This document shows positions 19,637-52,099 of a stretch of 64,000 nt of DNA, one piece after another. The DNA is from a virus. Positions within the stretch are counted from its first letter, which is position 1, and every line of letters starts with the position of its first letter. Below the pieces are notes generated by a model that made no database searches, was not told where the DNA came from, and worked only from the letters and a program-made list of their open reading frames with translations. The translations under genes were made by a program, and so were the position numbers. Location of the stretch: positions 1 to 64,000 of IMG/VR virus record IMGVR_UViG_3300034102_002082. One strand, written 5' to 3'.

Positions 19637-20179
19637 ATGAAATATACAGATTTTTACAGTGAGTTATTAGAAATTAAGTCTCAACAAGATACACCAGAAT
19701 TCAAGAATTGGTTCAAAAATTCTAAAGTAGTTGACGATCAAGGGAATCCGCTTCGTGCGTATCATGGTACTAGCAAGGATAAAGACTTTTCTAAATTTAC
19801 TGAGAAACAGAATGGAATGTGGTTTACGAGTTCTCCAGAATCGGCATCGTCGTATGCAGATCAAAATGATAGCATGAAATCTACGTATGGTTATCGTGGA
19901 AATATCGAGCATATTAACACAGCATCAAGAGTTATTCCAGTATATTTATCTATCCAAAATCCAGCAATTAACTTAACGAAAGAACAAGAAGATAAATTGA
20001 GATATTCTGACAATTATACTAAAGCGCAGCGAGAAGTTTTCGCTGAATTAAAGGCGCAAGGACATGATGGTGTCGATATGGGTGGAGGAGTATATGTTGT
20101 ATTTAGACCAGAACAGATAAAATCTGCAATAGGAAACACCGGAAAATTTAATCCGTCAGATCAACATATACACAAATAA
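19637..20179 (+). CDS. ADP-ribosyltransferase-like (ART-PolyVal type) protein with N-terminal YxDFY tag
   Basis: FKNWF..SKVVD..GNPLRAYHGT, GMWFTSSPESASSYA, VIPVYL, GHDGV, VVFRPEQIKSA; starts MKYTDFYSELLE. Confidence 0.75.
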   Translation: MKYTDFYSELLEIKSQQDTPEFKNWFKNSKVVDDQGNPLRAYHGTSKDKDFSKFTEKQNGMWFTSSPESASSYADQNDSMKSTYGYRGNIEHINTASRVIPVYLSIQNPAINLTKEQEDKLRYSDNYTKAQREVFAELKAQGHDGVDMGGGVYVVFRPEQIKSAIGNTGKFNPSDQHIHK

Positions 20180-20196
20180 ATATCGGTATAGTAATT

Positions 20197-20529
20197 TTAC
20201 ACCAGCGTGATTAGGCTATTTAGATCATCGAGTATAGTATTACAGATATCCACCAATTTTTTTCTGTTTTCTATCTCAAAATTATGAATAATATATTCAT
20301 TGTCTGACATAGCTAATTTTGTCTCTTCTATCAATTGTATAAGTTCATCCAATCTATCTTTGTGAGATAGCTTTCTCTGCTTTCCGCTGAATATATCGAG
20401 TATCAGAGTTTCTTTCTTTTCCAGTATTACGTTTATTCTATCCATAGCTACTTCCGTTTCGCTCTTTGGAATCCAGAAAAATATAACCGATCTGATTATT
20501 CTATAAATTGAGAATGCGATATTCGACAT
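20197..20529 (-). CDS. hypothetical protein
   Basis: 110 aa, operon packing. Confidence 0.6.
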   Translation of the reverse strand: MSNIAFSIYRIIRSVIFFWIPKSETEVAMDRINVILEKKETLILDIFSGKQRKLSHKDRLDELIQLIEETKLAMSDNEYIIHNFEIENRKKLVDICNTILDDLNSLITLV

Positions 20530-20531
20530 AA

Positions 20532-21068
20532 TTATTTTCCTTTTCTGGTTGCTCTGAATTTTAGTTCTCCGTTTATTTGTTTAAAGTAGTAAATATCGGA
20601 TTTTTCTGGTATATACTTCGATATTAAAATATTAGTTTTGCTCTTGAAGTCATATCCCTTGAACACCGAATTAACAATTATTGGTTGTCCCATTTGGATA
20701 TCAAATACTGCTACCTTATTGTTTTCTAATTCTATATAAAAGAAGCAATCCGAAAGTGGATCTAGTGATGTCCATTCTGTCGGTAAATCTCTACCGGAAT
20801 AATCCTTATTTGTATTATCCTTATTTTGCTGCGGTTTCTTTCTATTATTTTTTCTCAATCCGAATGTTTCATCATGATCGTAATAATAAACTGTTACGTT
20901 ATCTCGTAGAGTGCTTAGTAACCCATCTACAATTGCTATAGAACCCCATTCGAGTGGGTTTCGCATATTCGTATCATACAAAATATAATTGCTGTTTTTA
21001 AGCCCTATACAGTAATATGTATCGATTCCTTTTTCTATCTTCTTAAAAGTTTTCGGTTTTCTTGCCAT
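20532..21068 (-). CDS. hypothetical protein, possibly two repeated domains
   Basis: YCIGLKNSNYILYDTNMRNPL vs FYIELENNKVAVFDIQMGQPI. Confidence 0.65.
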   Translation of the reverse strand: MARKPKTFKKIEKGIDTYYCIGLKNSNYILYDTNMRNPLEWGSIAIVDGLLSTLRDNVTVYYYDHDETFGLRKNNRKKPQQNKDNTNKDYSGRDLPTEWTSLDPLSDCFFYIELENNKVAVFDIQMGQPIIVNSVFKGYDFKSKTNILISKYIPEKSDIYYFKQINGELKFRATRKGK

Positions 21069-21316
21069 TACACTTTTTCTATTTCAAAATTTATGTTACA
21101 TTCCGACAATATTTTACCACCGATTTTACACTTATCCTCCGTACCGAAATATAGAACTGGATTTCTGTCAGATTCTATATCCGTTAATATTTTGTCCACT
21201 AGATTGGAATCTACGTCACCATCGTATAATCTAGATAGTGTCGCTATGATCGCCATGTCATTAATTAGTTCATTTTCGGTCGTTTTTACCACCAATGAGT
21301 AATTTTCGTTTTTCAT
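21068..21316 (-). CDS. hypothetical protein
   Basis: 82 aa; TTGACA-N17-TAGTGT upstream. Confidence 0.6.
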   Translation of the reverse strand: MKNENYSLVVKTTENELINDMAIIATLSRLYDGDVDSNLVDKILTDIESDRNPVLYFGTEDKCKIGGKILSECNINFEIEKV

Positions 21317-21340
21317 TACGAAAACACTAAATCTAAAAAA

Positions 21341-21727
21341 TTATTTTGTCAAGACATTTTTCTTGCTTTGTTCGTTTCTGGTGAAGAATTGCCATAACTT
21401 TGAACAGACAAGCTTTATCGAATCTCTATCCCTAGCTATGTCAAGACCTAATCCGTGATCGGTTATCTTCTTATTTAAGTTATTTGATATTGGGTTAGGT
21501 GTAGATTTCCCGTCGATTATATTGATAAATTCTATAATGGTCTTTCTCTGTGTGATAGGATCTTCTACCGAACTGTATAATATCGGTGAAATTATGTTAT
21601 TGAATATCTTTTTTTCTTTCGCATCCGTTAATGTTAATGCGAAATTTTTTAAATCATTCATCATTTCTGCTTCCCACAGAACTTCGGATAAACATTCTTT
21701 TATTAATTCTTGTAATTTATTCTTCAT
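21341..21727 (-). CDS. hypothetical protein with LIKECLxE leader
   Basis: MKNKLQELIKECLSEVL; ATATTTATA upstream. Confidence 0.65.
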   Translation of the reverse strand: MKNKLQELIKECLSEVLWEAEMMNDLKNFALTLTDAKEKKIFNNIISPILYSSVEDPITQRKTIIEFINIIDGKSTPNPISNNLNKKITDHGLGLDIARDRDSIKLVCSKLWQFFTRNEQSKKNVLTK

Positions 21728-21760
21728 AGTTATAAATATAGTCTATTTCCCAAATTAACA

Positions 21761-25480: not shown

Positions 25481-25684
25481 TTATTCGATAATCTTTTTTA
25501 TAATCAGTTTTTCTGGTAATATCGACTCATACGTGCCATAAATTTCACAAGAAAACATTATTTTTGTTGCTTTTTCTTTTCCGAATAACTCTATTAATTT
25601 TTTGTAAGTGTTATTAGAATCAAGAACTTGTGAGTCGTTATTTGTTTGTATATTAAATTTGCTATTTTTCATATCATGTCCCAT
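25481..25684 (-). CDS. small hypothetical protein
   Basis: 67 aa. Confidence 0.45.
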   Translation of the reverse strand: MGHDMKNSKFNIQTNNDSQVLDSNNTYKKLIELFGKEKATKIMFSCEIYGTYESILPEKLIIKKIIE

Positions 25685-27363
25685 GTTGGTAAATTGTATT
25701 GGTTAGAATTTCCGAATAAATATTCAACAATCATATCGGGAGAAACCATGATATAATTGTATTTTTTGTCGGTTCCGAATAAATGCATAACTTTAAGAAA
25801 ATGTTGAACGTCTTCGTATTCATTGTTCAATTCTATCGTCTTTTGCTCCATCGAATTATCGTAAGCTTCCATTTTCCCATTCTTCAAGTCTATTACCAAC
25901 GGTATGGCTAAATACTCATCTATCCATTCTTGTATCTGTTCTCTTGGTTTTCCCACATATTTTAAATGGCTAGGAAAATTTTTCTTGAGTAATCTTGAAA
26001 ATAATTGGTCTACGTTGGTCTTATTGGATTGCACTACAGATATTTCTGTTATTTTTCTATTTTCTGAAATAGTTACTACCAATTGTTTCATTTCAGAAAA
26101 GAATTTTTCCAATTCGCTATAATCAGTCTTCCTCACCCGTAAAGTAAATGTAACTCTAAGATAATACATATCTTGATTATAATCAAATTGTATATGGGTC
26201 AATTTCTTGTATTTATTCGACAACACGGAAGCAAGCGCATCTGCCTTCTCTTGAGAAAACCCCATTACGCCATCTCCACCAAGATCATATTCTATGTCGC
26301 CATCAATTATATCTGGTTCGCCGCTATTTACGGTTAATGATACATCCTCAATAGCTACACCAGTATTCTTAAGTTCTCTTCTAACATCGTTTATGTACTC
26401 GGTTATTTTCCCGTATAAGTTTATACCTTTCTTCGTTACTTCATCTTCTGAGTCATAATATCCACCAAGTTTAAAATATTTTTTACTTTTTATTTCTTTA
26501 TTTATGTTGTTATCTGCCCATTTTCGTAACTCATTTTTGAACTGTGAAATAGGTACCCCGTAAATTTTAGAAACATTATAATATATTTCATCACTACTGG
26601 ATAATGACGCGAACGGTTTTATTAAACATCTAGATATGGGTTTCTTTATATTGTTATCGTTATCTGTTATTAAATATGCGACAATTGTACCATCGGATAC
26701 TTCATCCTTAACATATTGAGCATTCGATCCTTTGATTGGTTTTGTATCGTCGTTCTTCCCCTTATATACTATTTTATCCGTACCTAGATTCATGCAACTT
26801 GTCCAATTCCTGTCGGTTGACATACCGGCAATGTCGTATGGGTGTCTACTTATCGCAATTTTTAATTTTTTCCCGAATATCTGGCGATATGGATCTTCAT
26901 TGAATACTTTCAATAACTCAGTTTCATTTGGTAGATATTTTTGTATTACTTTTCCGAGTTTATATGGTATTTTATTTCCGTTCTTATCCTTCTTTACTTC
27001 TCCTGTCTTGTTATCAACGAAGTAACAAACGTTATCGACATAATTTTTAAAACTACCAACGCTCATATCATCATCCGATGTAGAATTGCTCAATGTAAAA
27101 TATCCATCTTGTGTATTTGTATTATTTTGTAACAACCCTATCAATCTATGGTATGATGTTTCTGTTCTGTATCTGGTTATGACATAATCAACTAATTCCT
27201 GATTTATCGGAACATCAAATGGAATATATATTCTATGTTTTCCATTAAATACATGATCCAGCAACGTCTTATATTTTCCACCAGAAATTTTTGTGTATTG
27301 CTTTGCTGTAGAGAGTGGCAATGCCATTTCCACTATATCGGAGTAAAAATCTTTATATATCAT
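25669..27363 (-). CDS. large hypothetical protein with N-terminal YKDFY tag
   Basis: starts MIYKDFYSDIVE; ISRHPYDIAGMSTDRNWTSCM core; ATATTTATA upstream. Confidence 0.75.
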   Translation of the reverse strand: MIYKDFYSDIVEMALPLSTAKQYTKISGGKYKTLLDHVFNGKHRIYIPFDVPINQELVDYVITRYRTETSYHRLIGLLQNNTNTQDGYFTLSNSTSDDDMSVGSFKNYVDNVCYFVDNKTGEVKKDKNGNKIPYKLGKVIQKYLPNETELLKVFNEDPYRQIFGKKLKIAISRHPYDIAGMSTDRNWTSCMNLGTDKIVYKGKNDDTKPIKGSNAQYVKDEVSDGTIVAYLITDNDNNIKKPISRCLIKPFASLSSSDEIYYNVSKIYGVPISQFKNELRKWADNNINKEIKSKKYFKLGGYYDSEDEVTKKGINLYGKITEYINDVRRELKNTGVAIEDVSLTVNSGEPDIIDGDIEYDLGGDGVMGFSQEKADALASVLSNKYKKLTHIQFDYNQDMYYLRVTFTLRVRKTDYSELEKFFSEMKQLVVTISENRKITEISVVQSNKTNVDQLFSRLLKKNFPSHLKYVGKPREQIQEWIDEYLAIPLVIDLKNGKMEAYDNSMEQKTIELNNEYEDVQHFLKVMHLFGTDKKYNYIMVSPDMIVEYLFGNSNQYNLPTWDMI

Positions 27364-27415
27364 TATTACCATATAAATATATGTTTATTTTAATATGTGC
27401 AAATAATTATACAAT

Positions 27416-27817
27416 ATGGGTATATTTAAGGTCATCTCTGGTAAATTGGGAGCTTCCGCCATATTGACGCACTCAATAGACAACCCAACCATACTATATT
27501 CCAATATGGCACATGATAAATTAACTGGTTATACAAATGTGGAACTGATAGGAGAATCTCCGAAAATATTCCAAGGAAAAAATACCAATAGAGATACAGT
27601 ATTAGATATTAAAAAGTCATTATTTGAGTGCAGTTACTGGTCGGGAAATATAATAAATTATACTAAAGATGGTATCGAAATCGACATACATCTCTTAATT
27701 TTTGGTATAATTTTTCAAGATGTGAAATATTTTGTAGTATATAAAAAACTAAATACTAATAAAATTTTATTTACTTTGAAAAAAATAGCAAAAAGATGTT
27801 GTAATATTTATCTGTAA
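27416..27817 (+). CDS. stand-alone PAS domain protein
   Basis: ILYSNMAHDKLTGYTNVELIGESPKIFQG...WSGNIINYTKDG. Confidence 0.8.
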   Translation: MGIFKVISGKLGASAILTHSIDNPTILYSNMAHDKLTGYTNVELIGESPKIFQGKNTNRDTVLDIKKSLFECSYWSGNIINYTKDGIEIDIHLLIFGIIFQDVKYFVVYKKLNTNKILFTLKKIAKRCCNIYL

Positions 27818-28446
27818 TGTGCTTTATGTACTTGATTAGATAGACCATAATCGACTATCACAACAGATTCTTTCCCGTTTCTATTTACTAGACCATAACT
27901 GTTTAATCTACCAAGATCCCCGTATCCTTTATCGAAATCTAACATGAAGGATTTTACTCTATCAGCAAATTCGTTATTATCATATTTTTCGATTAACTCT
28001 TTTGGTGGTTCCGAATAATGATTATTTCCGCTATATCGCAGATAATCATGAAGCTCATTTATATTTTTTATGCCGGTCAATTCTCTAAATTTCGACATGG
28101 ATAATTTTTTTGCCAATTCCATCTCTACCCATCGATATCCAACCTCATCAAAATCGTAAACTTTAGCAATAATATCTCCATACATATCTTGGGCACCCCA
28201 ATCAACTTCTACTTCATTTTGCGCAACCCCCGCATCATTCTTCGCCATTTTTAAAGCTTTCGTATCATCAATAACAAATACGACTCTACCGGTACCACTA
28301 GATATCCTCTGTAGGTGTTGAGCCGCGTACTTTACTTTCCCTGTATATGAATGTATTTTATTGAATTCATCCTTGTTCCACGAAGATGGGTAATCTTCCG
28401 ACAATACTTCATCTATACATTCCTTTATTATTAAATGTATATTCAT
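27808..28446 (-). CDS. protein kinase-like fold protein with IKECIxE leader
   Basis: SSGTGRVVF Gly-loop, ALKMAK, QNEVE, DLGRLNSYG, IVDYG. Confidence 0.7.
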   Translation of the reverse strand: MNIHLIIKECIDEVLSEDYPSSWNKDEFNKIHSYTGKVKYAAQHLQRISSGTGRVVFVIDDTKALKMAKNDAGVAQNEVEVDWGAQDMYGDIIAKVYDFDEVGYRWVEMELAKKLSMSKFRELTGIKNINELHDYLRYSGNNHYSEPPKELIEKYDNNEFADRVKSFMLDFDKGYGDLGRLNSYGLVNRNGKESVVIVDYGLSNQVHKAHYR

Positions 28447-29000
28447 AATCCGAGCCTTTGATAACTGACATATACCAATGGATCAACTATTTCATCGCTA
28501 ATATACATCCAACGTAAAGGTGCTAAGTCATTTTCTGTTCCGTCTCCTTTTGGTTTGGATGGGGATTCTGCGTCAGTCAGATCAATACCAAACAAATAAT
28601 AAGTTGTGTCTGAACTCTTTGTTCCTCTGCACGTACCAAGTTCTTTTATCTTCGATATATCAACATCGTAACCAGTTTCCTCGAATAATTCTCGTTTTGC
28701 TGCGGCTTTCGGTTCTTCTCCCTTATCAACACCACCAGTTACCGATGATAATGATCTACTTTCTCCCCAGCATGGAGTTATTTCTTCTCTAATACCGATT
28801 TCATATGCATCTCTGCCTGCTCTTCTATATGGTAATATAGAGATGATCTTTCCATCACATCGTATTTCATGTGAATATGTGTATGTACCAGTTGGTGTTT
28901 CCATTTCACGTAGTTCTAACCACTCATCACCACCTAATTTTTTAAAATCTGGTTTGGTAGATTCGGTTAATATGTCTTTGTAAAATTCTTTATATTTCAT
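28443..29000 (-). CDS. Nudix hydrolase with N-terminal YKEFY tag
   Basis: Nudix box GGVDKGEEPKAAAKRELFEETG; starts MKYKEFYKDILTE. Confidence 0.88.
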   Translation of the reverse strand: MKYKEFYKDILTESTKPDFKKLGGDEWLELREMETPTGTYTYSHEIRCDGKIISILPYRRAGRDAYEIGIREEITPCWGESRSLSSVTGGVDKGEEPKAAAKRELFEETGYDVDISKIKELGTCRGTKSSDTTYYLFGIDLTDAESPSKPKGDGTENDLAPLRWMYISDEIVDPLVYVSYQRLGL

Positions 29001-29009: not shown

Positions 29010-29516
29010 TTAAAATTTTGGATAAACGATTATTCGCCCATCTTCTCTTACTGTCCCTTTGTGTGTTTTCAATAACTTCTTATATATAGCAGCAGCACCA
29101 TCACTTAATTCTTTATCTGACGTAATACTATATTTCTTATCGTCTAATAACCACAAATAAAACTCCATTCCATATCCATAACCACGAGCGTTTCTAGTAA
29201 AACCAATGGTGTTTATAATAACTGAATTACCATTTTTTCCTAAATTGCACGAACCAATATATTCGTCTTTATTATTAAAGAAGTGAAGGTTGTGTGGTCC
29301 CGCATTCTGTATTCCATCTCGATCTACATAAATATCAAAACCATTGGTTCCATCTTCATACCATAGGTCTTCCATTTTTGGTTGCTTTGATGGGAGAACT
29401 TGTTCATCATCATATGAACTATGAGAATTTAACGCATCAATAGCAACATACAAATCACTAATGTTTGATTGTAAATTTTCTAAGACTAAATGAGAATAAA
29501 AATCCTTGTAATGCAT
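29010..29516 (-). CDS. GNAT-like protein with N-terminal YKDFY tag
   Basis: in-frame ATG at 29516 (MHYKDFYSHLVLE); RGYGYG acetyl-CoA motif; SDKELSDGAAAIYKKL. Confidence 0.7.
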   Translation of the reverse strand: MHYKDFYSHLVLENLQSNISDLYVAIDALNSHSSYDDEQVLPSKQPKMEDLWYEDGTNGFDIYVDRDGIQNAGPHNLHFFNNKDEYIGSCNLGKNGNSVIINTIGFTRNARGYGYGMEFYLWLLDDKKYSITSDKELSDGAAAIYKKLLKTHKGTVREDGRIIVYPKF

Positions 29517-29520: not shown

Positions 29521-31248
29521 TTAAATATCAAGATTTTCAAAAAAAGAGTTAATTGCTTCTTTTTCGTCGTATCTATCGAACCCATAATTTGGGACATGCA
29601 TATCACCATCGATACTAAAATTATATCTGTGGAATATATTAAAGTGTGGATCAATATCAATAGATCCAGTATCAATCACTTCGATAAATTCTACCAAATC
29701 CCATTTCTGATATACTGGTGAGTTAAATTTGCGAGTTGGGTCTTCATATCCTACATGAAACATATATCCCGTATCGTCTTGTATAAATTTTAGATCTGTT
29801 ATTCCTTCAAGAAAATTCTCCGTCATTTCCGATAATATACCAACTTCATATCCTACCCGCACAGCAGAATTTAATTGTTCTATTATCAGATCTTCATTAT
29901 CGTATAAATAGTCGAATTCATTAATATCTTCGTCGTCATTGGTCGAAGTTTTGTTACTTACGTAGCTATCGACACCCTTTGATTTATACCTACTGTCTCT
30001 AGATACCATATCAAATAGTCTTTCTGTTGAATTTTTGTCGTCGTGTATATTGCCATGATAGTGGTTTTCCATATAGTCACCGTCTATAACGTATTGCTTG
30101 TAATATTTTAACTTCTGTGGTTCTTGTGTCGATGGTATGTCTTGCCACAACTCTTCAATATTTTTCCACGATACGATACGAATCGAACCATTATTGGTGA
30201 ATTGAACTAGGTTTCTAGTGTTTGGTGGGAGTCTATCCAATATTAAATTCTTAACCCGTTCCGTGAGTCCTTCTTCTTTATATATTAATTTCAACGGCTT
30301 TAATTCTGGTCTTGCTACATATAATTTTCGCCTTTCTGATTCATCTAAGTCATCAACACTGAAGTTCTGCTCTGGTGCGTATCCACCTCCACGAATTCCT
30401 TTTATGAAAAATGAACTACCATCTTTTAATTTTAATAAGCTTATTATATACTTGTGATAAATTTCGGCTGGCTTTTCGTTGGCTCTGCCTTTCATTTCTC
30501 CCAACATACCAGTTGATTTATCCAATATAAAGGTACACGAAGGTCTACCAAATATTTTGTCTCCACGTTTTGTAATTTTCCTCAAACTTAAAACTGTGTC
30601 CGATGGTTTGTGTGATGCTGTATTTCCGCAGTGTCCCATAGCATCACCCTCTTTCCTACAGAATGGTATCGATAAATCAAACCAAATAAAACCATCTGGA
30701 AACTTTATTAATTGCGTCATTGAATCTATTTCATCTGTCATATCGATCCATTGATTATCCTCTCCATGTGATTCCTTCCATTTGTCCTCATATTTCTGGA
30801 ACAGATAAATGATTTTCCTAGGATCTTCGTAAGAAAACCTAAAATTCTTTATTTCTGATATTGGTAACGATAAAAAATGCTCAAGAGTGCCTAGTTCTAA
30901 TGAATACCGAATAGAACCATTCGTGAGTTCCTTCGGTGCTGCATATTTTTCATTTTTAATTATATTACTAAAATCGTCTAGCCATTTACTCTTACTCTTA
31001 TCATATGCTCCGCGATAAGTAGTATGATAGTTATGCCTTTCATTCTCCCATGCCAAATATCTCCACCAACGTAGATACCATTGAATAATATCGTCTCTCC
31101 TTAACGACTTAACTACTTGAGAAACATGCCTTTTATCGTATTCTGAATATGGTCCATTGGTGCCCGTTAAAATTGGGAGATACCTATCATATCTAGCCTC
31201 CAATAATAATTCAGAGTAAAAATCCGAAAATTTCTGCTCAATTATCAT
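29521..31248 (-). CDS. large hypothetical protein (PcfJ-like region) with tag variant
   Basis: MIIEQKFSDFYSELLLE; EGDAMGHCG, SLR, EMKGRANEKP. Confidence 0.7.
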   Translation of the reverse strand: MIIEQKFSDFYSELLLEARYDRYLPILTGTNGPYSEYDKRHVSQVVKSLRRDDIIQWYLRWWRYLAWENERHNYHTTYRGAYDKSKSKWLDDFSNIIKNEKYAAPKELTNGSIRYSLELGTLEHFLSLPISEIKNFRFSYEDPRKIIYLFQKYEDKWKESHGEDNQWIDMTDEIDSMTQLIKFPDGFIWFDLSIPFCRKEGDAMGHCGNTASHKPSDTVLSLRKITKRGDKIFGRPSCTFILDKSTGMLGEMKGRANEKPAEIYHKYIISLLKLKDGSSFFIKGIRGGGYAPEQNFSVDDLDESERRKLYVARPELKPLKLIYKEEGLTERVKNLILDRLPPNTRNLVQFTNNGSIRIVSWKNIEELWQDIPSTQEPQKLKYYKQYVIDGDYMENHYHGNIHDDKNSTERLFDMVSRDSRYKSKGVDSYVSNKTSTNDDEDINEFDYLYDNEDLIIEQLNSAVRVGYEVGILSEMTENFLEGITDLKFIQDDTGYMFHVGYEDPTRKFNSPVYQKWDLVEFIEVIDTGSIDIDPHFNIFHRYNFSIDGDMHVPNYGFDRYDEKEAINSFFENLDI

Positions 31249-40848: not shown

Positions 40849-41928
40849 TTAATAACTCATATGTGTATGTCCACCATCTTGTTTAATCACCGTTAAACCA
40901 TTCTTTTTAAAGGTATTTATCAGCAATGGATTGACGACATCAATCTTTAATTTAATCTTTGAATTGTAGCCATTCTTTAGTGATTTATAATCATCTAACC
41001 CAAGCTTTACTAACTTATCACCTAGTCCTTTATTTCTGTGTTCTGGTTTGACGATTAGATCAAATGAGAATTCTTCTCCCTTACTTGAGTTCTGTAATTC
41101 TGTATATAAAGCTCCGAGAACTTCACCATCTTCAACTAATACAACATTTAATTCTTTCCCTCTAAGAATTGATATTCCAGAAGACTTTTCTAGCTCGTTT
41201 ATTTGCTCCCAAAAATCCGGTATATCTTCCCCGTCATCTGACTGTAATTGCCCATCTTGAATATACTTTGTTTCTATTTCTTCAGTCAATGCCAATTCCG
41301 GTGAATGAACCGGTGAATTTGCATACGGAGGAGTCTCGACTGGTTCTTCTTTCTGTTCTTTGCTTCCACCCTTATCTATCAATTTCTTAACGTCTTTAGC
41401 TAACTCGTAGAAACTACCGTTTGGTAATATATATTGGTCAAATGTGCTATTCTTTCCACCTAATTGACCAATCTGTTCCTCATCAGTTTCATATAAACCA
41501 GATGGTCCTTTTTTTACGTCCGATTGATATACTTGTATTATCCCCGTTAATGGTTTTGATGTATCGACTGGTAACTTTTTTATAGCATCGGTATGACTCT
41601 TTAGGTTCTTGCCGTGTGCATAATCATTAAAGTCACTAGATACTGGCTTATCATTCCAGTTTATTATGTTGAACTTTATTTTATAATATGATGCTTTGTA
41701 ATAAAAAGTGAAGAATCCAAGAATTGATGTGATCGATTTTTTCGGAACTCTATGGTCGGTAGCTATTCCAATTGATGTGTATGATATATCTGGTTCAAAT
41801 ACGTTCCCGATCTGATCATCATCTAGATCTAAAGCAAGCTTGAAAGCGGAATATATCGAAGACTGTAAAGAGTTGGGTGGAATAACCACTTCATTCAGAA
41901 TATGTGAGTAAAAATCCTTATAATTCAT
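40849..41928 (-). CDS. two-domain protein with C-terminal GNAT and N-terminal YKDFY tag
   Basis: MNYKDFYSHILNE; DLIVKPEHRNKGLG; internal LTEE linker. Confidence 0.75.
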   Translation of the reverse strand: MNYKDFYSHILNEVVIPPNSLQSSIYSAFKLALDLDDDQIGNVFEPDISYTSIGIATDHRVPKKSITSILGFFTFYYKASYYKIKFNIINWNDKPVSSDFNDYAHGKNLKSHTDAIKKLPVDTSKPLTGIIQVYQSDVKKGPSGLYETDEEQIGQLGGKNSTFDQYILPNGSFYELAKDVKKLIDKGGSKEQKEEPVETPPYANSPVHSPELALTEEIETKYIQDGQLQSDDGEDIPDFWEQINELEKSSGISILRGKELNVVLVEDGEVLGALYTELQNSSKGEEFSFDLIVKPEHRNKGLGDKLVKLGLDDYKSLKNGYNSKIKLKIDVVNPLLINTFKKNGLTVIKQDGGHTHMSY

Positions 41929-41940
41929 ATGCTATAAATA

Positions 41941-42849
41941 TTAATTTAAAATCCTAACGTTCTTTATTTCTGTCACATCTATTGTTTTCCAGTCCACGTT
42001 AGATTCTTGTGAAACATCATTTACATTAATAACACCAGTAAACAATGATCTAGTTCCCTTCAAGTCTGCATATCCCTCTGCGTATTCTTTTGATGGTGAT
42101 ACATATAAATCCTTCGGTAGCTTGCCAGAATCTTTTATTCGTAATACCATAGAGCTATCGTGAGATGCATATATTCTAACTTGTTTACCGGAAGGATTAA
42201 GTAATTTGTTTACCATCTTAATCGTTTCTTCCGATGCTTCATCATTACCCTCAAACATTTCTAGCTTACCATTATAATCTACAGTTAATGATATCTGCAT
42301 ATCATCGTCAGCTGAAGCTGATACTTCTATTACTACAGGGAAAAATTGTTGGATATTATGGTTATGTTCCCCATCAAACAATAAACTATATTTTAATTGT
42401 TCTATATCAACATACGGAATATGGCTCGTTAATTCTTTAACTTTCTTTATTACGTCATTTCTTAGGTTAATAAAATCGACAGCAAATTCGGAAGTTTTAC
42501 TTTTTAGAACTCTATTCAGAGTATATTCATTTTTATGTTGTGGTTTTTTTAGGATATTAGCAATAAAATCGAAGTTTATTAATTCTGGGTTTCTTATTGG
42601 TTCGGTAGCTTTTGGTTCCAATTCATCCATAACGTATTCTAGTTCATCGTGTAATTTATCATATTGTCTCTTTAATGATATATATTCTTCCGAATCCGCA
42701 TATCTACTATGCATATCACCCATACCATTTTTCCTAATGGTTTGGAGTTTATTGAATACGATATCTATTTCTTTACTCAACTCGGATCTTCTTGCTATCA
42801 GATCCGAATTTTCTTTTAGTATGTGTATGTAAAAATCTTTGTATTTCAT
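41941..42849 (-). CDS. YKDFY-tagged protein with possible ART-like C-terminal domain
   Basis: MKYKDFYIHILKE; VRIYASH...LYVSPSKEYAEGYA. Confidence 0.65.
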   Translation of the reverse strand: MKYKDFYIHILKENSDLIARRSELSKEIDIVFNKLQTIRKNGMGDMHSRYADSEEYISLKRQYDKLHDELEYVMDELEPKATEPIRNPELINFDFIANILKKPQHKNEYTLNRVLKSKTSEFAVDFINLRNDVIKKVKELTSHIPYVDIEQLKYSLLFDGEHNHNIQQFFPVVIEVSASADDDMQISLTVDYNGKLEMFEGNDEASEETIKMVNKLLNPSGKQVRIYASHDSSMVLRIKDSGKLPKDLYVSPSKEYAEGYADLKGTRSLFTGVINVNDVSQESNVDWKTIDVTEIKNVRILN

Positions 42850-42850: not shown

Positions 42851-43660
42851 TCAAAATGGTAGGTCTTTATTGTCTGGTTGTTGTATATGTTGTCTTGTTG
42901 TGATTTTTGGTTTTTCGTTTTTCACATTAAATCCACCACCTTTATACATCTCCGGTTCTTCATCATCGTAACCAATTTCAGCTTTGAGTAATCTATCATG
43001 TTTTTGATATGGATTTTCTCCTTCCCAGAATGGATCTATCAATACAAATTCTCCATTATCCCTTTTCATTATATTTCCCTGTGTAAAATCCGGTGTTCCG
43101 AACTCTTTATCCGCCGTAATTAAGAACCAATAATCTTTTTTGAATTCTATTATAGATGGACGACTTTTTTCAATTTCTTTTATCTTGCTATATGTTTGTT
43201 TCCAAATATTATTCCTGTCTTTCATTTTTTCCAGATACTCATTATCTCCACCGTAAACTTTATAAAAGTCTATATCTAAGAATTCTTCCTTTGTTATTGG
43301 ATTTAATTTCTCAGTTTTTATTATATATAAATGAGAATGAGATGTTGGTCGGGTAAAGTTTGGGACTATTCTTCTCGGTTTATCGAAGAATTTAGGAAAA
43401 GATTTCCTTGGATTTTTTAACGCAAATCTAACAAATTTTAAATATGGAACGTCGCTATGGAATATTTTTAAAACATATTTCCAAGACGGATGTGATAGTA
43501 CGGTTGCGTATGTTCCTTGCCCCAATATTTTACCACCATGTTTCTCAAAATCTGATAGAAGTTCACGTAATTGTAAATCATTGTTCGTCGGGTCAGATAA
43601 AAGTTCCCCAATGCTATCATACTTCTCAAACAGATATGAGTAAAAATCTTTGTATTTCAT
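42851..43660 (-). CDS. protein kinase-like protein with YKDFY tag
   Basis: ILGQGTYATV, VLKIF, EKL, DFTQGNIM, LIDP. Confidence 0.8.
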   Translation of the reverse strand: MKYKDFYSYLFEKYDSIGELLSDPTNNDLQLRELLSDFEKHGGKILGQGTYATVLSHPSWKYVLKIFHSDVPYLKFVRFALKNPRKSFPKFFDKPRRIVPNFTRPTSHSHLYIIKTEKLNPITKEEFLDIDFYKVYGGDNEYLEKMKDRNNIWKQTYSKIKEIEKSRPSIIEFKKDYWFLITADKEFGTPDFTQGNIMKRDNGEFVLIDPFWEGENPYQKHDRLLKAEIGYDDEEPEMYKGGGFNVKNEKPKITTRQHIQQPDNKDLPF

Positions 43661-43661: not shown

Positions 43662-45803
43662 TTATGTGTTTCTCCAATTTTTTATTTTTGCTGCTTCTGG
43701 TGTTGGATACTTTGGTTTTACATTTAATAAAATCACTTCTCCCTCATCACTCCCTATCATATCCGGTATATCGAGTGCCACATCAAACCCAAACTTATGA
43801 TTAAATTCTTGTGTCGATAGATATTTTTCTACCTTCTCTATGTCTATACTACCATCGAAAGATTTTAATGCTAACGTTGTGTAACCAACCAAACCGAAGA
43901 GTCTCATAGTAGGAGACTTAGAGAATGATAATGCGGATAAAAAATATTTGAGATATTCTTCATCGGAGTTGTCTATGTTATCTGGGTATACCTCATCTCC
44001 TCTATATAATAATCGATTAGATGTATATTTAAACATTTCCTTATATCTGTCATCTAGTTTACTCCACGCATTTAATAATCCGATTCTATCCTGTGTATGG
44101 TTTCCTTGGTGTATGTTAACCATAACTAGAAAATCATATAAAATATAGTCAGCTTCCGTTGGTAATAAATAATTCTCTTGTTGGATTTTTATGTATTCCT
44201 GTTCTTTCCCCCTTTTATTTTTTATAAGATATAATTCTTTTATAGTAATATCGTATCGTTTTCTGTCCTTATAATACTTGTTAATGTACATGGAGAATAT
44301 CGCATTTGTCGGTGACTCTCCATGAGATATTAAACGACCACCATTTTCAAGTACAATTAAATAATTACCGGATTGTTTAGTAAATAACTTATTTATTCCT
44401 TCACACATAAGAAGTTCTCGATAAAAATCTTTATATTGTATCTCATTTATTCTTATCGCATTGAAGAGATCGATTACTTCTTGATATCCCAGTTTCTGAT
44501 AAAATTTTACTATGTCCTCCGTAGAATTTATTTTCGGTGGTAAGTCGAATGTTTTTGTTTCGTCTTGATCGAACCCAACACTTAAATCCGCACCAAATAC
44601 ATAAGCTTCAAAATCCGTTTCAAAATGTACCATACTATAAAATTCTTTAATTTGTTCCTTCGTTAATATATTTGTTAGTGTGTCGATCATACTCTCATAG
44701 AAATCACTGAAATAATTTATATATTTTATCGACCTGTTAAACTTTTCAAAATCTTTTTGCTCTAAAGAATTACGTAGAAATTCCGTAAACTCTTTATCCG
44801 TATCAAATTGACTATTAATGTGGTATATGCGAGAAAACGGAAGTTCAAACTTCATACGATTGCCTTGGGACATACACAAATTATAACATATGTTTTTTAA
44901 TTTGTCAAATCCGATAGCTCCCATTATTATACCCGATATGTCAAGATTTTTACTAACATCAAATTTAGAATTCACTATATTAAAAATGCCACTGAGAAAT
45001 TTCCTTAATTCTTTTCTAAATTCTCCTTCACCAAAATAGATATTTGCTCCTGATATGAATTTTTTCTGTTTATGTCCACCTTTTCTTTTTATTCTATTAT
45101 TCTTTTCTGAATCAAAATAGTTAATTATACCAGAAGAAATTTTTTCCGGTAGAGTTGATAAAAATTCAGTAGCACCGGATTGACCCAATTCAGTATCATT
45201 GGCATCATATGCTTCTATATCGTTTGTCTTACCGACCAAAGCGATTTTCCATAGAGGATTTATCTTGTCCAGATTTCTGTTTTTCACTATTACTATCGTA
45301 TTCGCCTTTTCATCATAATATGAATCCCAGTAAGTTTCATTCGATGTTGATATACACCACTTAGTTGAACCACCATAATGTTTGGCAGCTTCATGGGATT
45401 CTGGTGCAATTACCAGCCAATCATCGGTATCTGCAATTACGTCGATATCACCCGATAGTTGTTCTTTTTTCGAAACGGTTCTATTTTTTAGTATATCTGA
45501 TAAATCATCTATAGTTTTTACTTTGAATATATCGATTCCCTTAACCCTACTATCGAACTCCCTAATATTGTCCATTAGTTCATTTTTCTTACTTCCTCGC
45601 CAGAAATTTTTATGGAAATAATCAAACCCCTTATCGTCGTAAATATCGTTTAGACGTTGGCTAATCCATTTCAGATATTTCTTAGATGTAGATGGATCTT
45701 CGTCTATTATATAATTTATATCGTCCGGAGTTAGTAATTTATCTACTCTATTACGGAAATCATCTTCTCTACCCTCGATCAATAATATTTCTAATAATTT
45801 CAT
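43662..45803 (-). CDS. large fusion protein with an internal YKDFY tag and a C-terminal ADP-ribosyltransferase-like domain
   Basis: KYLKWI, AAKHYGGSTKWCIS; internal IQYKDFYRELLMCE; LLYRGD / LSFS / EGEVIL R-S-E pattern. Confidence 0.7.
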   Translation of the reverse strand: MKLLEILLIEGREDDFRNRVDKLLTPDDINYIIDEDPSTSKKYLKWISQRLNDIYDDKGFDYFHKNFWRGSKKNELMDNIREFDSRVKGIDIFKVKTIDDLSDILKNRTVSKKEQLSGDIDVIADTDDWLVIAPESHEAAKHYGGSTKWCISTSNETYWDSYYDEKANTIVIVKNRNLDKINPLWKIALVGKTNDIEAYDANDTELGQSGATEFLSTLPEKISSGIINYFDSEKNNRIKRKGGHKQKKFISGANIYFGEGEFRKELRKFLSGIFNIVNSKFDVSKNLDISGIIMGAIGFDKLKNICYNLCMSQGNRMKFELPFSRIYHINSQFDTDKEFTEFLRNSLEQKDFEKFNRSIKYINYFSDFYESMIDTLTNILTKEQIKEFYSMVHFETDFEAYVFGADLSVGFDQDETKTFDLPPKINSTEDIVKFYQKLGYQEVIDLFNAIRINEIQYKDFYRELLMCEGINKLFTKQSGNYLIVLENGGRLISHGESPTNAIFSMYINKYYKDRKRYDITIKELYLIKNKRGKEQEYIKIQQENYLLPTEADYILYDFLVMVNIHQGNHTQDRIGLLNAWSKLDDRYKEMFKYTSNRLLYRGDEVYPDNIDNSDEEYLKYFLSALSFSKSPTMRLFGLVGYTTLALKSFDGSIDIEKVEKYLSTQEFNHKFGFDVALDIPDMIGSDEGEVILLNVKPKYPTPEAAKIKNWRNT

Positions 45804-46519
45804 TTTTGTAATAGTGTTAAATACTTAGGATCTATTTTCCCATTGATTATAACTGTTTCTTCCCACTGCCCATCACTACTATCGGGACTATATCTATTAT
45901 CCCCTATTATATGTGCTATTTGTCCTCTAACGGCACCATCTAATACATCTGGTTCCATTGATACGTATGGTGTCACTCCATCTCGCTTCATTGCTGATGT
46001 ATCGATCTTGAATATGTTATCACCATATTCACCAAGAAGTATTAGATCAATGTTACTTACGGTAAATACCCCACTGGTTCCTCTATTACTTATACCGGTT
46101 CCGGTAGTTGTGTTTAATCCATTTTCTTTTATACCATCTACGTTCTCGTCCCTCGTTCCGTGGTATAATGGTGATGGTGAACCCCAAAAATCTTTATTGA
46201 AAGTTTCCTCGACATTAGATTCTATCTCAGAAAAATCAGAATCATATAGGAACCTGTCCTTCTTATGGAAAGTCAATGGATAATTTTGTGCAGTTGGGTC
46301 AAATTCTATAACAGCTTGGTCAGTTAGTATGTACGAATTTCCCGAAAATGGTATGTTAATATCGTTATACTTTACCTTCATGTTGTCTAGAACTATTTTG
46401 ATATCTTCTAACGGTTCCGTTTCTGGATTTTCTTGTAGATAATCATCATATTCATATTCTATATCACTTGCGGAATGACCTTCGATTATCAGGTGTTGAT
46501 AAAAATCCTTATATTTCAT
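45800..46519 (-). CDS. ART-fold (Tpt1/KptA-like) protein with YKDFY tag
   Basis: MKYKDFYQHLIIE; LYHGT...IKENGL, GVF, IFKIDTSAM, IDPKYL. Confidence 0.65.
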   Translation of the reverse strand: MKYKDFYQHLIIEGHSASDIEYEYDDYLQENPETEPLEDIKIVLDNMKVKYNDINIPFSGNSYILTDQAVIEFDPTAQNYPLTFHKKDRFLYDSDFSEIESNVEETFNKDFWGSPSPLYHGTRDENVDGIKENGLNTTTGTGISNRGTSGVFTVSNIDLILLGEYGDNIFKIDTSAMKRDGVTPYVSMEPDVLDGAVRGQIAHIIGDNRYSPDSSDGQWEETVIINGKIDPKYLTLLQK

Positions 46520-46521: not shown

Positions 46522-47136
46522 TCAATAAGTAAAATCGTTTATGATCCTATAATTTATATTAAAAGCATCAAATAGAAGTCTAAATTCCGCCAAACATTGT
46601 TCCTTTGCTCCACCCACTAAATAGCAACCAGATAATTTTTTTAAATCCGAAATCACAACATCTGGTATATTCACGGAGTCATTTTCGATAATATCTGGCA
46701 AATCAGTAAATTCGTTCCAATCATCTGCAAATAATTTTTCCCACTCATCGGTAGTTACGTCACGACTGTCGTATTTTTTATTCATAACCATAAATCGAAT
46801 AGCCTTAATAATATAAGCTCTATCCATCCCATTGTCCATCCACACACGAAAAAATCCGTATCCTTTATCAATAAATTTCATATTGGGTATCACATCATCA
46901 TTCAACCCATGTTCTAGATAGTAGTCTATTATTGAATTTTTATCATCTTCACTTCCGATACTATCACCATTGAAATAAACTACAATCGGACCTTTTCTAT
47001 TGTTTAAAAAATTACAAATACCATCAACAATCCCACCACAATATTTATTGTATTCGGGTTGAACATCTACGACTACAGTTGGTGATGATAATGTTCCTTC
47101 ATTAATTAAATGTAAATAAAAATCTTTGTATTTCAT
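46522..47136 (-). CDS. isochorismatase/cysteine-hydrolase-like protein with YKDFY tag
   Basis: MKYKDFYLHLINE; VVVDVQPEY, DKGYG, LVGGAKEQCL (D-K-C triad pattern). Confidence 0.7.
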   Translation of the reverse strand: MKYKDFYLHLINEGTLSSPTVVVDVQPEYNKYCGGIVDGICNFLNNRKGPIVVYFNGDSIGSEDDKNSIIDYYLEHGLNDDVIPNMKFIDKGYGFFRVWMDNGMDRAYIIKAIRFMVMNKKYDSRDVTTDEWEKLFADDWNEFTDLPDIIENDSVNIPDVVISDLKKLSGCYLVGGAKEQCLAEFRLLFDAFNINYRIINDFTY

Positions 47137-50049: not shown

Positions 50050-50419
50050 TAATAACGAAATGTTTCATAAATTACTATCAGAGGCTCAAACGAATCTGAT
50101 TAGCAATAATATATTATACTCTAACCTTATATCCGATAGGGAAAAAGTTATAAAATTTTACGTAAAGAGAATAAATAAAGTACAGAAAAGAATAAGATCT
50201 ATTGGTAATGCCGTAAAAAGAGAAGAATCGAGAATACGGGAATGCAAAAAAATGCTCGGTATGTCGATTGATACAATACAAAAGGGAAAGGTAATTGTAA
50301 AGGAATCGATAGAACCTATAGATAAATTTGCTATAAATCCAATTACTGGAGAAGTAATCGAATTATCGTACGATGAAATAAATCAACTGTTAGAAGACAG
50401 AAAGAAAAAAACCCCGTAA
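50042..50419 (+). CDS. hypothetical coiled-coil protein
   Basis: 125 aa. Confidence 0.55.
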   Translation: MDNNNEMFHKLLSEAQTNLISNNILYSNLISDREKVIKFYVKRINKVQKRIRSIGNAVKREESRIRECKKMLGMSIDTIQKGKVIVKESIEPIDKFAINPITGEVIELSYDEINQLLEDRKKKTP

Positions 50420-50432
50420 GTTACGGGGTTTT
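50405..50432. terminator. bidirectional terminator
   Basis: AAAAAACCCCGTAA/TTACGGGGTTTTT between convergent genes. Confidence 0.75.
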
Positions 50433-50436
50433 TATT

Positions 50437-50979
50437 TTATATTTTTGGTGTTATTTTACCCTTATTCGGATAAGCATTTATCGACCATCTGGCTGGTTTC
50501 CCATCTTTTGTCATATCTGACGTAATTCCGGCTCTTGGTTCCGTTATTTTTGCACCACCTTCGTTAACAGAAGATATAGTTTTGTTTAACGGAGTTCCGT
50601 CGATATCGCCAGTTATGTGTGGACCACTAGCAGACAACTTTTCTGAGTTATTGCCTGCTTCTATGTTTTCTTCTCCACCATCTGGATTTACGACAACGGC
50701 AGTAGATATATCACCTAGACTTTTACATTTTTCCATATTACTATAATAATGTGGGTCTTCCTTTAAATGATCCATCGCAATTTTTTGCGCTATAGTATCA
50801 TCATCGGTATGTTCATGTTCTTCGTCTGATCCTTTTTGTAATTCTGGTGCATTGAACTCTTCCGGTTTTTCTTCTACTGTATCTTTATTGAGATGTGAGA
50901 AGAAATCCTTGAAATTGATATCCGTAGAATCTAAGTCATGTGTTTCTTTCAATTTTACTTTTTTTATTTGTTTTTTCAT
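50437..50979 (-). CDS. DUF5661-like protein
   Basis: ELQKGSDEEHEHTDD...IAMDHLKEDPHYYS; internal NFKDFFSHL tag variant. Confidence 0.75.
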   Translation of the reverse strand: MKKQIKKVKLKETHDLDSTDINFKDFFSHLNKDTVEEKPEEFNAPELQKGSDEEHEHTDDDTIAQKIAMDHLKEDPHYYSNMEKCKSLGDISTAVVVNPDGGEENIEAGNNSEKLSASGPHITGDIDGTPLNKTISSVNEGGAKITEPRAGITSDMTKDGKPARWSINAYPNKGKITPKI

Positions 50980-50983
50980 AATT

Positions 50984-52099
50984 TTATTTCTTATTATTCA
51001 TTCCTCGCATAATAGATGATATTGATTCTATCCCGCGACCAGCAACTCTTTCCTTGATGCCAGCTTGTACAATTTCATTTGCTACGCTGTTTACTACTGG
51101 AGAATTTCTGTTTCTGTTTTTCATCATTTCATCGATAATGTTACCGACTTGTTTTATCTTTTCTTCTTGTGTTACTTTTAGATCAGGCATAAGCATTTGT
51201 AATTTTGAATAATATTTTGGGTTTGTCTTTAAATTGTTTACTACTATCTCCTTGGCTTTTTCTTTACTTGGTCTCATTTGTTTTGCCATCTCGTAACGAA
51301 GACCGGAAAAAATTTCATCTTTATCTAAACCATCGACATTTAGATCGACATCGCTAACATTGTCATATGGAGCAGATCCTAATATAGTGTTTCCGTTCAT
51401 TGGTGAATACCTAGTATTCCTCGTTTCGGATGAGAATTTGCTTGGATCTTGTGAGGTTCCATTAAATGTAGCTGCCCATCCAGATGCGGCGATACTACCA
51501 CCAGCAGCACCACCGTAACCTCCACCAGCACCATAATCTTCTAATATTCTGGTATGTTGCTTTTTGTTATCTGAATATATTACTCTATCGATATCTATTT
51601 CCATACCATCGAAACCGTCATAATCCAATAGATCGTTGCCCTCATCAGATTTTACATATGCTAATGTAATATGTGCTTTATAATCTGGATAATTATTTTT
51701 ATAAGATAATTCTTTTAGTTCATTATTAATTTGATTTAATACTTCACCAGTTACATCTATCTTTATAACATCAAAATCGTCCGTACTGAATTTGGTCACT
51801 TTACCTAATGTAGCTTTTATCTTACCTTCATACTTCTTTAATATTTCTCTGGCAGCATCCTCGTTACCATCTTCTAACCCGTACAGCAAGGTTATATGTG
51901 GCCATTCTTCTTTTCCCTTTGAATCATCCCCTTCTTCTTGATATAGAATATCATCCGGTATTTCTTCGATAAATTCATATACCTTCATTAGTACTGGTAT
52001 ACTGTCAGATTTAGTGGTCTCTGTCGGAGGAACTTCCGCCATGACACAATCCTTGAACTCTTCATTTAATAGTTGCTTATAAAAATCTTTGTATTTCAT
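50984..52099 (-). CDS. 2H phosphoesterase (Acb1-like) fused to a DUF5661-like domain, with YKDFY tag
   Basis: MKYKDFYKQLLNE; two HxT motifs PHITLLYGL and AHITLAY; C-terminal GLRYEM...AKEIVVNNLKTNPKYYSKL. Confidence 0.8.
   Translation of the reverse strand: MKYKDFYKQLLNEEFKDCVMAEVPPTETTKSDSIPVLMKVYEFIEEIPDDILYQEEGDDSKGKEEWPHITLLYGLEDGNEDAAREILKKYEGKIKATLGKVTKFSTDDFDVIKIDVTGEVLNQINNELKELSYKNNYPDYKAHITLAYVKSDEGNDLLDYDGFDGMEIDIDRVIYSDNKKQHTRILEDYGAGGGYGGAAGGSIAASGWAATFNGTSQDPSKFSSETRNTRYSPMNGNTILGSAPYDNVSDVDLNVDGLDKDEIFSGLRYEMAKQMRPSKEKAKEIVVNNLKTNPKYYSKLQMLMPDLKVTQEEKIKQVGNIIDEMMKNRNRNSPVVNSVANEIVQAGIKERVAGRGIESISSIMRGMNNKK

Follow-up and report, generated by a model that had tools for sequence, protein, structure and literature searches.

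The first 64 kb of the 129,856-bp IMG/VR virus record IMGVR_UViG_3300034102_002082 (G+C 34%), the 64,000-nucleotide stretch that we call the window, encode a series of unrelated proteins that begin with the same short peptide, M-K-Y-K-D-F-Y-x-x-h-h-(x)-E (h, hydrophobic). Comparative analysis showed that this leader, hereafter the class-1 tag, exists, is non-random, is conserved at the peptide level, is portable and is bounded by its closing Glu. By analogy with phage T4, we consider it likely that the tag works as a capsid-targeting sequence (CTS) of the internal-protein (IP) type, whereby a tagged protein would dock onto the core, be cleaved after the Glu by the S77 protease, be retained in the head and be ejected with the DNA. 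Docking, packaging and ejection are here transferred from T4, the protease specificity is read from conserved substrates, and the cargos would presumably act against the host.

The leader as a portable module

Eleven open reading frames (ORFs) had originally been predicted to carry this tag, and all 11 were found to do so. When the complete genome was scanned in six frames with the expression [YF]x[DE]F[YF]x(2-3)hh x(0-2)E, 12 matches were obtained, one more than predicted, against a mean of 0.06 and a maximum of 1 in 50 mononucleotide shuffles; all 12 lie within one 33-kb region (19.6-52.1 kb). In nine of them, a Met that stands two positions ahead of the aromatic residue is encoded by the first ATG compatible with the packing of the genes; the tag at 27363 begins at the second in-frame ATG of its ORF and that at 31248 has four extra residues. 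The leader is 12-13 residues long in 10 of the 12 copies and 17 in one, and the remaining copy is internal (IQYKDFYRELLMCE, nt 44400-44441, minus strand), occupying residues 455-468 of a 713-aa ORF (43662-45803). The core [YF]-x-[DE]-F, in which an aromatic residue and a Phe are three apart with Asp or Glu before the Phe, is present in 12/12 tags, as is the closing Glu (P1), and P3 is Leu in 7/12, Ile in 3/12, Val in 1/12 and Met in 1/12. A degenerate 13th candidate, MKFKDFYVDDRLEE, was found outside the window at the start of a 192-aa ORF (genome nt 112043), a 28%-identical relative of which (locus L116) starts with a canonical tag, MKYKDFYKELLNE. A DUF5661 ORF (50437-50979, minus strand), which comes immediately after the tagged 2H gene, contains a degenerate internal tag-like sequence, INFKDFFSHLNKD, without the closing Glu.

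The claim that similarity stops right after the Glu was borne out: in an all-versus-all BLASTP comparison of 13 tagged proteins, the first 10-17 residues aligned with 50-80% identity. Similarity beyond the tag was limited to two or three weak pairs in this 13-sequence database, the best being the proteins starting at 42849 and 52099 (6e-5, in an alignment that includes the tag), with 27363 and 47136 at 7e-4. Codon usage indicates that conservation acts on the peptide, because codons vary at the Tyr, Lys and hydrophobic positions: TAC and TAT occur at 5:5 and 6:4 for the Tyr codons, AAA and AAG are mixed for Lys, and many codons are used at the hydrophobic and Glu positions. Phe (TTT, 10/10) and Asp (GAT, 9/10) were less varied.

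Five independent observations showed that the leader is a portable module joined to its cargo at the Glu; the evidence is comparative and includes different folds, leader swaps and a cassette indel. The cargos belong to different Pfam folds, namely ADP-ribosyltransferase (ART), Nudix, GNAT and 2H. Swaps were observed on the ART: 62 stand-alone homologues were found at E≤1e-5 (itself included), and the nine closest (62-73% identity) comprise three with the class-1 leader, five with a second, class-2 leader described below (MHILLKxLLxE or MKTLKQILSE) and one that starts M-N-E directly, all nine sharing the mature sequence (I/T)K.QQDTP.FKNWF after the junction. By regular expression, 5/62 homologues are class 1 and 9/62 class 2; most have no leader, and distant ones start at the domain. 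No close tagged ART was found among cultured phages, whose 9 records were all below 42% identity. Homology also begins at h-x-E in the orthologues of ORF 46522-47136, which start MKYKDFYLHLINE, MNYTDFHKSLIEE or just MSLLLE. As for the cassette indel, a 3.3-kb metagenome contig (Ga0007798_10005280) contains the genes for the kinase-like (99% identity), 302-aa (96%) and GNAT (95%) cargos, with an extra 458-aa tagged gene inserted exactly between two tagged genes and flanked on both sides by a repeat of TAATAT plus the ATG-tag.

Tags also occur inside fused ORFs. Comparison of a leader profile with 1.84 billion proteins gave two tags per ORF in 4 of the 10 best matches, and in the closest relative (G001) a 590-aa tagged protein is fused to a homologue of ORF 45800-46519 via A-K-Y-K-D-F-Y (832 aa). 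P0015 (251 aa, starting MNYKDFYVEILNE↓GINP, the arrow marking the leader junction) is a stand-alone homologue, 54% identical, of the C-terminal part of the 713-aa ORF; the internal tag of that ORF has ATA where relatives have ATG. In ORF 40849-41928 and its relatives, the GNAT module always has L-x-E in front, and the full tag in one relative. A perfect sigma-70-type promoter (TTGACA-17-TATAAT with an upstream TG; 44880-44908, minus strand) was noted inside the 713-aa ORF. It points the same way as the gene, precedes the internal tag by about 440 nt and may represent a relic or serve as an internal promoter.

Cargos and a second leader

Function could be assigned to part of the cargo. The original labels of ART, Nudix, GNAT and 2H phosphoesterase for the ORFs starting at 19637, 29000, 41928 and 52099 were confirmed by Pfam. 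The first (cargo 1, 19637..20179, plus strand, leader MKYTDFYSELLE, 180 aa) is an ART of a polyvalent-protein family that matches PF18760 over its full length (3.4e-22, positions 1-140 of 140) and phrog_21376 and phrog_30335 inside profiles of 1664 and 2900 positions. Cargo 3 (28443..29000, minus strand, MKYKEFYKDILTE, 185 aa) is a Nudix hydrolase (Pfam NUDIX, 8e-11; PHROG nudix families), and cargo 6 (40849..41928, minus strand, MNYKDFYSHILNE, 359 aa) consists of an N-domain, an internal LALTE↓EIETKYIQDGQ and a GNAT domain (Acetyltransf_1, 1.1e-7). The predicted 2H phosphoesterase (cargo 12, 50984..52099, minus strand, MKYKDFYKQLLNE, 371 aa), which is also Acb1-like, lies just above the Pfam cut-offs of 27 bits, at 28.1 bits for 2_5_RNA_ligase2 and 27.3 bits for Acb1; it matches phrog_755 (1.6e-11), and its G001 orthologue starts MDNPYKKFTQFLLNE.

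Other assignments were upheld in part, and two of the original function labels are unproven. The kinase-like cargo 8 (42851..43660, minus strand, MKYKDFYSYLFE, 269 aa) matches phrog_15752, a T7-0.7-like kinase family (4e-6), and had no Pfam match. The GNAT-like cargo 4 (29010..29516, minus strand, MHYKDFYSHLVLE, 168 aa), also without a Pfam match, resembles viral GNAT clusters in the Atlas (features 0.94-0.95; structure TM 0.61-0.65 over residues 29-167). For cargo 10 (45800..46519, minus strand, MKYKDFYQHLIIE, 239 aa), proposed to have an ART fold, a possible ART/Tpt1 fold is suggested by phrog_5470 (8.2e-4), PF01885 (0.024) and PF00644 (0.059); this stays a weak hidden Markov model (HMM) lead because modelling from a 2-sequence alignment gave no confident structure (pLDDT 31.6). 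Cargo 11 (46522..47136, minus strand, MKYKDFYLHLINE, 204 aa), labelled isochorismatase-like, gave an AlphaFold2 model (pLDDT 72.9) that is Rossmann-like and possibly of the isochorismatase hydrolase type. In VIA it reached Z 8-9 to many isochorismatase/nicotinamidase chains, a borderline result tied with CARF domains, and there was no Foldseek match at E≤1e-3. Its D24, K91 and C171 are invariant among 3 sequences and may correspond to the Asp-Lys-Cys triad of isochorismatase-like cysteine hydrolases.

No Pfam family was found for cargo 2 (25669..27363, minus strand, MIYKDFYSDIVE, 564 aa) or cargo 7 (41941..42849, minus strand, MKYKDFYIHILKE, 302 aa), the latter with a 96% identical homologue in L178/L179. 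Cargo 5 (29521..31248, minus strand, MIIEQKFSDFYSELLLE, 575 aa) gave a PcfJ-like lead (Pfam PcfJ, E 0.099; Atlas 0.94 to PcfJ-bearing viral clusters). The 713-aa fused ORF (43662..45803, minus strand) starts with a class-2-like leader, MKLLEILLIE↓G, and has 245 aa after its internal tag. At E≤0.01, Pfam returned nothing for 8/13 tagged proteins, nor for most environmental cargos. Most tagged ORFs have one recognisable domain, two modules being confined to the fused forms; the mature cargos are 17.6-65.8 kDa, with a pI of 4.3-5.4 for 8/13. Outside the window, at genome positions 88328-91202, a nicotinamide phosphoribosyltransferase gene and a second Nudix gene point to nicotinamide adenine dinucleotide (NAD) salvage. 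Together with the tagged ARTs, Nudix, 2H and possible nicotinamidase-like fold, the NAD-salvage genes make up an apparent NAD/ADP-ribose theme in the genome.

The second leader, h-L-L-K-x-L-L-x-E or MKKSELKQLIRE, occurs on many unrelated proteins across the whole clade, its sequences being strikingly alike (for example MKKSELKQLIRE↓C, MNKSELKNIIKE↓C and MIKLKxLLxE). When N-termini fitting M-x(0-7)-h-x-x-h-h-x-E were counted per genome, a 3-9-fold enrichment was observed in every clade genome examined: 10 against 1.9 expected in this phage (G000), 6 against 0.9 in G001, 8 against 0.9 in G002, 8 against 1.2 in G003, 6 against 1.7 in G004, 12 against 2.3 in Flavobacterium phage immuto and 7 against 2.7 in Microcystis phage Mel-JY01. 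Among 38 class-2 proteins, only 6 pairs were similar beyond residue 22. In the window, this leader pattern begins proteins of 128 aa (MKNKLQELIKE↓C; 21341..21727, minus strand), 212 aa (MNIHLIIKE↓C; 27808..28446, minus strand, in the unit of tagged cargos 3-5) and 137 aa (MTKKELKNMIAE↓C; 31709..32122, plus strand), as well as a lysozyme-domain protein (MEIIKLKDILKE↓L; 32123..32725, minus strand; PF00959, 1.2e-14) whose G001 orthologue starts MIKLKTLIFE↓V. Since class 2 replaces YKDFY on the same ART, the two leaders are probably equivalent in function, and the YKDFY leader looks like a lineage-specific addition.

Proposed head targeting and its alternatives

By sequence comparison, the 130-kb phage is a far-T4 myovirus, a distant relative of T4. 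Its nearest named phages are Mel-JY01 and immuto (portal identity about 50%), and 306 portal relatives were found in IMG/VR. The head module runs terminase, gp20-type portal (55655..57556, plus strand; PF07230, Portal_T4, 3.5e-71), two ORFs, S77 prohead protease, four small ORFs, a 419-aa scaffold candidate and a gp23-type capsid protein, which is the order seen in T4 (20-67-68-21-22-23). The gp21-type prohead serine protease, the presumed leader cutter (59501..60115, plus strand; PF03420, Peptidase_S77, 3.3e-30), is 32% identical to T4 gp21 over 150 residues, matches the gp21 crystal structure (PDB 5JBL, 1.4e-18) and retains the catalytic His/Ser/Asp motifs GEL(D/N)HP, G(I/V)SSR and D-x-V..PS as GELDHP, GISSR and DFV..PS. 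Candidate scaffold or core genes lie between the protease and capsid genes, as in T4 (60125..63575, plus strand). They include two ORFs with class-2 leaders (60125-60709, plus strand, MKTTKKFNIGSILKE; 61382-61810, plus strand, MKLKKLLAE↓MG) and, starting at 62316 on the plus strand, the acidic gp22-like scaffold candidate.

The gp23-type major capsid protein, the start of which falls in the window (63628..64000, plus strand; PF07068; 31% identical to T4 gp23), has propeptide sites LLE-36, LLE-52 and IEE-61↓A. In an alignment of the capsid proteins of seven clade members with T4 gp23, the T4 site LLE-18 aligns with LLE↓G in 7/7, IFE-38 with h-LE↓NQ in 6/7 and the maturation site LTE-65↓A with (I/L/V)-x-E↓A in 7/7. 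Because these substrate sites are conserved, the h-x-E↓ specificity of the protease has very likely been kept in this phage.

The protease and its clade homologues carry candidate self-processing sites, namely N-terminal LLNE-21 and C-terminal (L/I)(I/M)RDI-I-x-E followed by 2-4 residues. The clade-conserved I-x-E lies 2-6 residues from the C-terminus, and I-x-E plus 2-4 residues was seen in 5/5 members examined outside immuto and Mel-JY01. These ends recall reports that related proteases process their own C-termini (Ali 2017). A second terminase-large-subunit-like ORF (297 aa, N-terminal ATPase part; phrog_5989, 8e-33) was noted at genome positions 102857-103753 (minus strand), a long way from the packaging module.

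Expression of the tagged genes was considered through a promoter-like box. The most enriched 8-mer upstream of genes is ATATTTAT, found at 29 genes against 3.0 expected; of its 69 copies, 30 fall in the 100 nt ahead of a gene start on the same strand, against an expectation of about 7%. The box heads all six transcription units with tagged genes and also stands before the sheath, tube, head-tail adaptor, two head-module and two baseplate-module genes; it was not found before the polymerase, clamp loader, ribonucleotide reductase and helicase genes. Copies of the longer form ATATTTATA lie 3 nt before the cargo 1 ATG (19625..19633, plus strand), before cargo 6 (41933-41941, minus strand), before the sheath gene (36148-36156, plus strand) and at 52449-52457 (minus strand); a ATATTTAT/ATATTTATA box abuts the cargo 2 start (27372-27380, minus strand). 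We know of no promoters mapped in this phage group, and a reading of the box as a late promoter is reasonable but unproven. The box usually lies 4-13 nt 5' of the ATG, a position that implies very short or absent mRNA leaders, and ATATTTAT(A) is the reverse complement of the T4 late box TATAAATA, yet reads in gene direction here. It also stands upstream of each of two small paralogous ORFs (phrog_13558; 14430-14669 and 24706-24948, both plus strand). The unit 52442-50437 is closed by a strong bidirectional terminator with a 12-bp stem (50407-50433), which separates convergent units ending at 50419 (plus) and 50437 (minus).

The model that we favour is as follows. During head assembly, the aromatic core of the leader (Tyr3, Phe6 and the acidic residue before Phe) would dock the newly made enzyme onto the scaffolding core. 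Once the shell is closed, the gp21-type protease (59501-60115) would cut after the Glu of (L/I)-x-E, at N-terminal and internal copies alike, and the freed enzyme would remain in the head and exit with the DNA at the next infection, there to modify host proteins, nucleotides or signalling molecules before phage genes are expressed. The leader itself is a module, swapped with class 2 at the Glu boundary and gained or lost along with whole genes; where tagged genes fuse, the tag persists as a linker and presumed cut site, which would give polyprotein behaviour. The predicted capsid-targeting idea came through every in silico test able to break it. The architecture, the intact gp21-type protease, the capsid site and the exchange at the Glu speak for the portable tag as originally conceived; the original reading is upheld in part and needs five amendments. 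The YKDFY tag is evidently not the sole leader, class 2 replacing it on orthologous cargo; tags are also found inside fused ORFs; most cargos are acidic enzymes, where T4 has basic internal proteins; two function labels are unproven; and late expression is argued from the shared promoter-like box only.

Several observations weigh against head targeting of this type. The spacer between core and cut motif is 3-4 residues here, whereas in T4 the cut motif follows Phe7 directly (F-I-A-E), and P3 is V or M in two tags. Most of the cargos are acidic, with sizes of up to 66 kDa, whereas the T4 proteins are small and basic; small, basic cargo is typical of T4 IPI-III and not required, Alt and engineered fusions being otherwise. 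The box ATATTTAT also precedes ssb (58 nt upstream), homing-endonuclease-like ORFs and others, and since some of these genes are non-structural, late timing is not secure. Mild enrichment of (L/I)-x-E near N-termini was also seen in two unrelated contigs, G006 (4 observed, 1.5 expected) and G007 (3 observed, 0.9 expected), so that the class-2 expression is weak on its own. Finally, the class-1 tag is rare: among the matches listed, it is multi-copy only here, in G001 (six or more copies, variants included) and in one small near-identical metagenome contig, and it was not found in clade members G002-G004 (portal identity 59-64%).

De novo N-terminal clustering returned no class-1 family in G002, G003, G004, immuto or Mel-JY01, and 80 portal-centred relative loci (about 1 Mb) contained only two loose non-canonical matches, both on the G001 contig. 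Exact-pattern scans of viral contigs returned 8 and 18 stretches, mostly single chance-like ORFs, and residues 1-40 of the kinase-like cargo, used as the query of a word-indexed search, gave 11 candidates and 1 match. In metagenomes, single canonical tags were found on new cargos including at least a Nudix, a 333-aa WYHGTS protein and proteins of 247, 324 and at least 507 aa. Each of G006 and G007 has a single canonical tag; no T4-like core genes were found in the parts of these contigs that were examined, so that they are uninformative on head type.

Among the alternatives, the one that survives best gives the leader another role or destination: it could dock cargo onto the tail or baseplate, or act as a zymogen-like propeptide that keeps harmful enzymes inactive in the producing cell until a protease takes it off, without packaging into the head. 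The observations establish a modular, Glu-bounded leader whose destination is presumed, and the ART, kinase-like and Nudix cargos could harm the producing cell. In addition, class 2 is present on a lysozyme-domain protein, and the T4 lysozyme domain rides on the baseplate. We nevertheless judge this alternative unlikely. The closing motif fits the head-protease specificity and the clade capsid propeptide site, and a zymogen role would be compatible with head loading rather than opposed to it. Moreover, the T4 head protease acts inside the closed prohead (Ali 2017; Kuhn & Thomas 2022), and the Tyr/Phe core matches the T4 capsid-targeting residues (PMC9026906).

It is somewhat less probable still that conservation lies in the nucleic acid, as a translation-start enhancer in this AT-rich, Shine-Dalgarno-poor phage or as a recombination site, with a peptide that has no targeting role. 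The tag DNA is AT-rich and lies 0-13 nt from the promoter-like box, the 458-aa cassette indel is bounded by box and tag repeat, and Phe and Asp are almost invariably TTT (10/10) and GAT (9/10). Such an element would not explain the synonymous variation at Tyr and Lys or the many codons at the hydrophobic and Glu positions, nor the tags kept in frame within fused ORFs, which require no translation start at those points. The two leader classes are unrelated as DNA, yet swap on the same cargo and both end in h-x-E, and one orthologue retains only MSLLLE. Recombination at tags may occur as a by-product. That the tagged genes are diverged paralogues keeping only the N-terminus, or chance matches, is scarcely credible: set against the weak similarity beyond the tag in the 13-sequence database (6e-5 and 7e-4), there are 12 tags where 0.06 would be expected, cargos in different Pfam families and leaders swapped on orthologous cargo.

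Head targeting of the T4 type may be part of a broader system, a reading that we put forward tentatively and hold to be less likely than not: plug-and-play effector loading, through two interchangeable leaders that end in a head-protease site. A 36-nt swap of the cassette head would turn almost any enzyme gene into an injected weapon, leader DNA and promoter box would serve as a recombination joint for adding, removing and fusing cargo genes, and fused genes would stay functional as the protease separates their products inside the head. In effect, the phage would own a split polyvalent protein in the form of 12 to about 20 enzymes made in advance and delivered as the DNA enters. With ARTs, a kinase, GNATs, a Nudix, an Acb1-like 2H phosphodiesterase and perhaps a nicotinamidase-like hydrolase among them, defences based on NAD and cyclic nucleotides could be disarmed before they fire.

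Comparison with known systems

Shared CTS leaders on diverse injected proteins are already established for T-even phages, whose injected defence proteins share only the CTS (Rao & Black 2010; Kuhn & Thomas 2022); the CTS has been suggested as a means for T4-like phages to load varied proteins (Kuhn & Thomas 2022, PMC9026906). What is new here is the scale (12-13 proteins, perhaps 20 with class 2), with an enzyme cargo that overlaps the polyvalent repertoire, and the two interchangeable leaders and polyprotein forms. Nothing on this tag, or on a large CTS enzyme set in distant T4-like phages, was found in a literature search that covered few subscription journals. The T4 CTS is known from three small proteins and from engineering; if our reading is right, nature uses the principle on a larger scale and with real enzymes, and an injected arsenal could be listed from sequence alone through a shared leader ending in a head-protease motif. 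It would also provide new, naturally validated leaders with which phage heads could be loaded with foreign proteins. Orthologous cargo with swapped leaders represents a clean natural experiment on what a targeting peptide requires, and an Acb1-like or Nudix enzyme, if injected, would counter defences within the first minute, an activity hard to find otherwise.

T4 internal proteins are cut once, beside a CTS of about 10 residues (10.1101/2021.01.19.427310); IPII and IPIII begin MKTYQEFIAE↓A. Targeting depends mainly on residues 4 and 7 (Tyr and Phe) and processing on residues 8 and 10 (Ile and Glu), gp21 cutting after L/I-X-E (Kuhn & Thomas 2022, PMC9026906). The class-1 tag has the same parts in the same order, a Tyr-x-acidic-Phe core and then (L/I)-x-E, in a leader 2-3 residues longer. 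It differs from the T4 system in the number of tagged proteins, 12-13 compared with three in T4, and in having a second interchangeable leader and tags inside fused ORFs; none of the cargos matched a T4 internal-protein family in Pfam. Class-2 leaders resemble the propeptides of T4 gp22, gp24, gp67 and Alt, and the T4 N-termini MELITE, MEGLIE, MLKEQLIAE and MAKINELLRE are similar both to these leaders and to the variant MSLLLE.

T4 Alt is a head-carried ART that gp21 trims at ITE-6 and LTE-619 (Ali 2017), and here too an ART is among the presumed head cargo. It belongs to an H-Y-D PolyVal family (PF18760), whereas Alt is of the R-S-E clade (Iyer 2017, PMC5512222), and it has a CTS-like leader where Alt has a 6-residue propeptide. 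In the giant phages phiKZ and SPN3US, many head-internal proteins have propeptides cut after the Glu of a three-residue motif, and the paralogues gp53 and gp54 have identical 15-residue N-termini on diverged proteins (Ali 2017). Those phages use an S80 protease, an A/S-x-E motif and long propeptides, in contrast to the S77 protease here, and the accessible part of that account describes no short portable leader on unrelated enzyme folds.

Polyvalent proteins, known from phages and conjugative elements, combine 2 to 15 disparate effector domains in one polypeptide and are predicted to be delivered together with the DNA (Iyer 2017, PMC5512222). The tagged cargos have the same repertoire (PolyVal-family ART, kinase and GNAT) and their genes likewise lie among virion genes (Iyer 2017). 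They are mostly separate genes with their own leaders, as opposed to one giant polypeptide; if our reading is right, polyvalent proteins and T4 internal proteins would be linked as two solutions to one delivery problem. A nearly polyvalent architecture is seen here only in the fused forms (the 713-aa ORF, the 832-aa G001 protein, P0005, P0007, P0010 and P0014), whose leaders are presumed to be cut sites.

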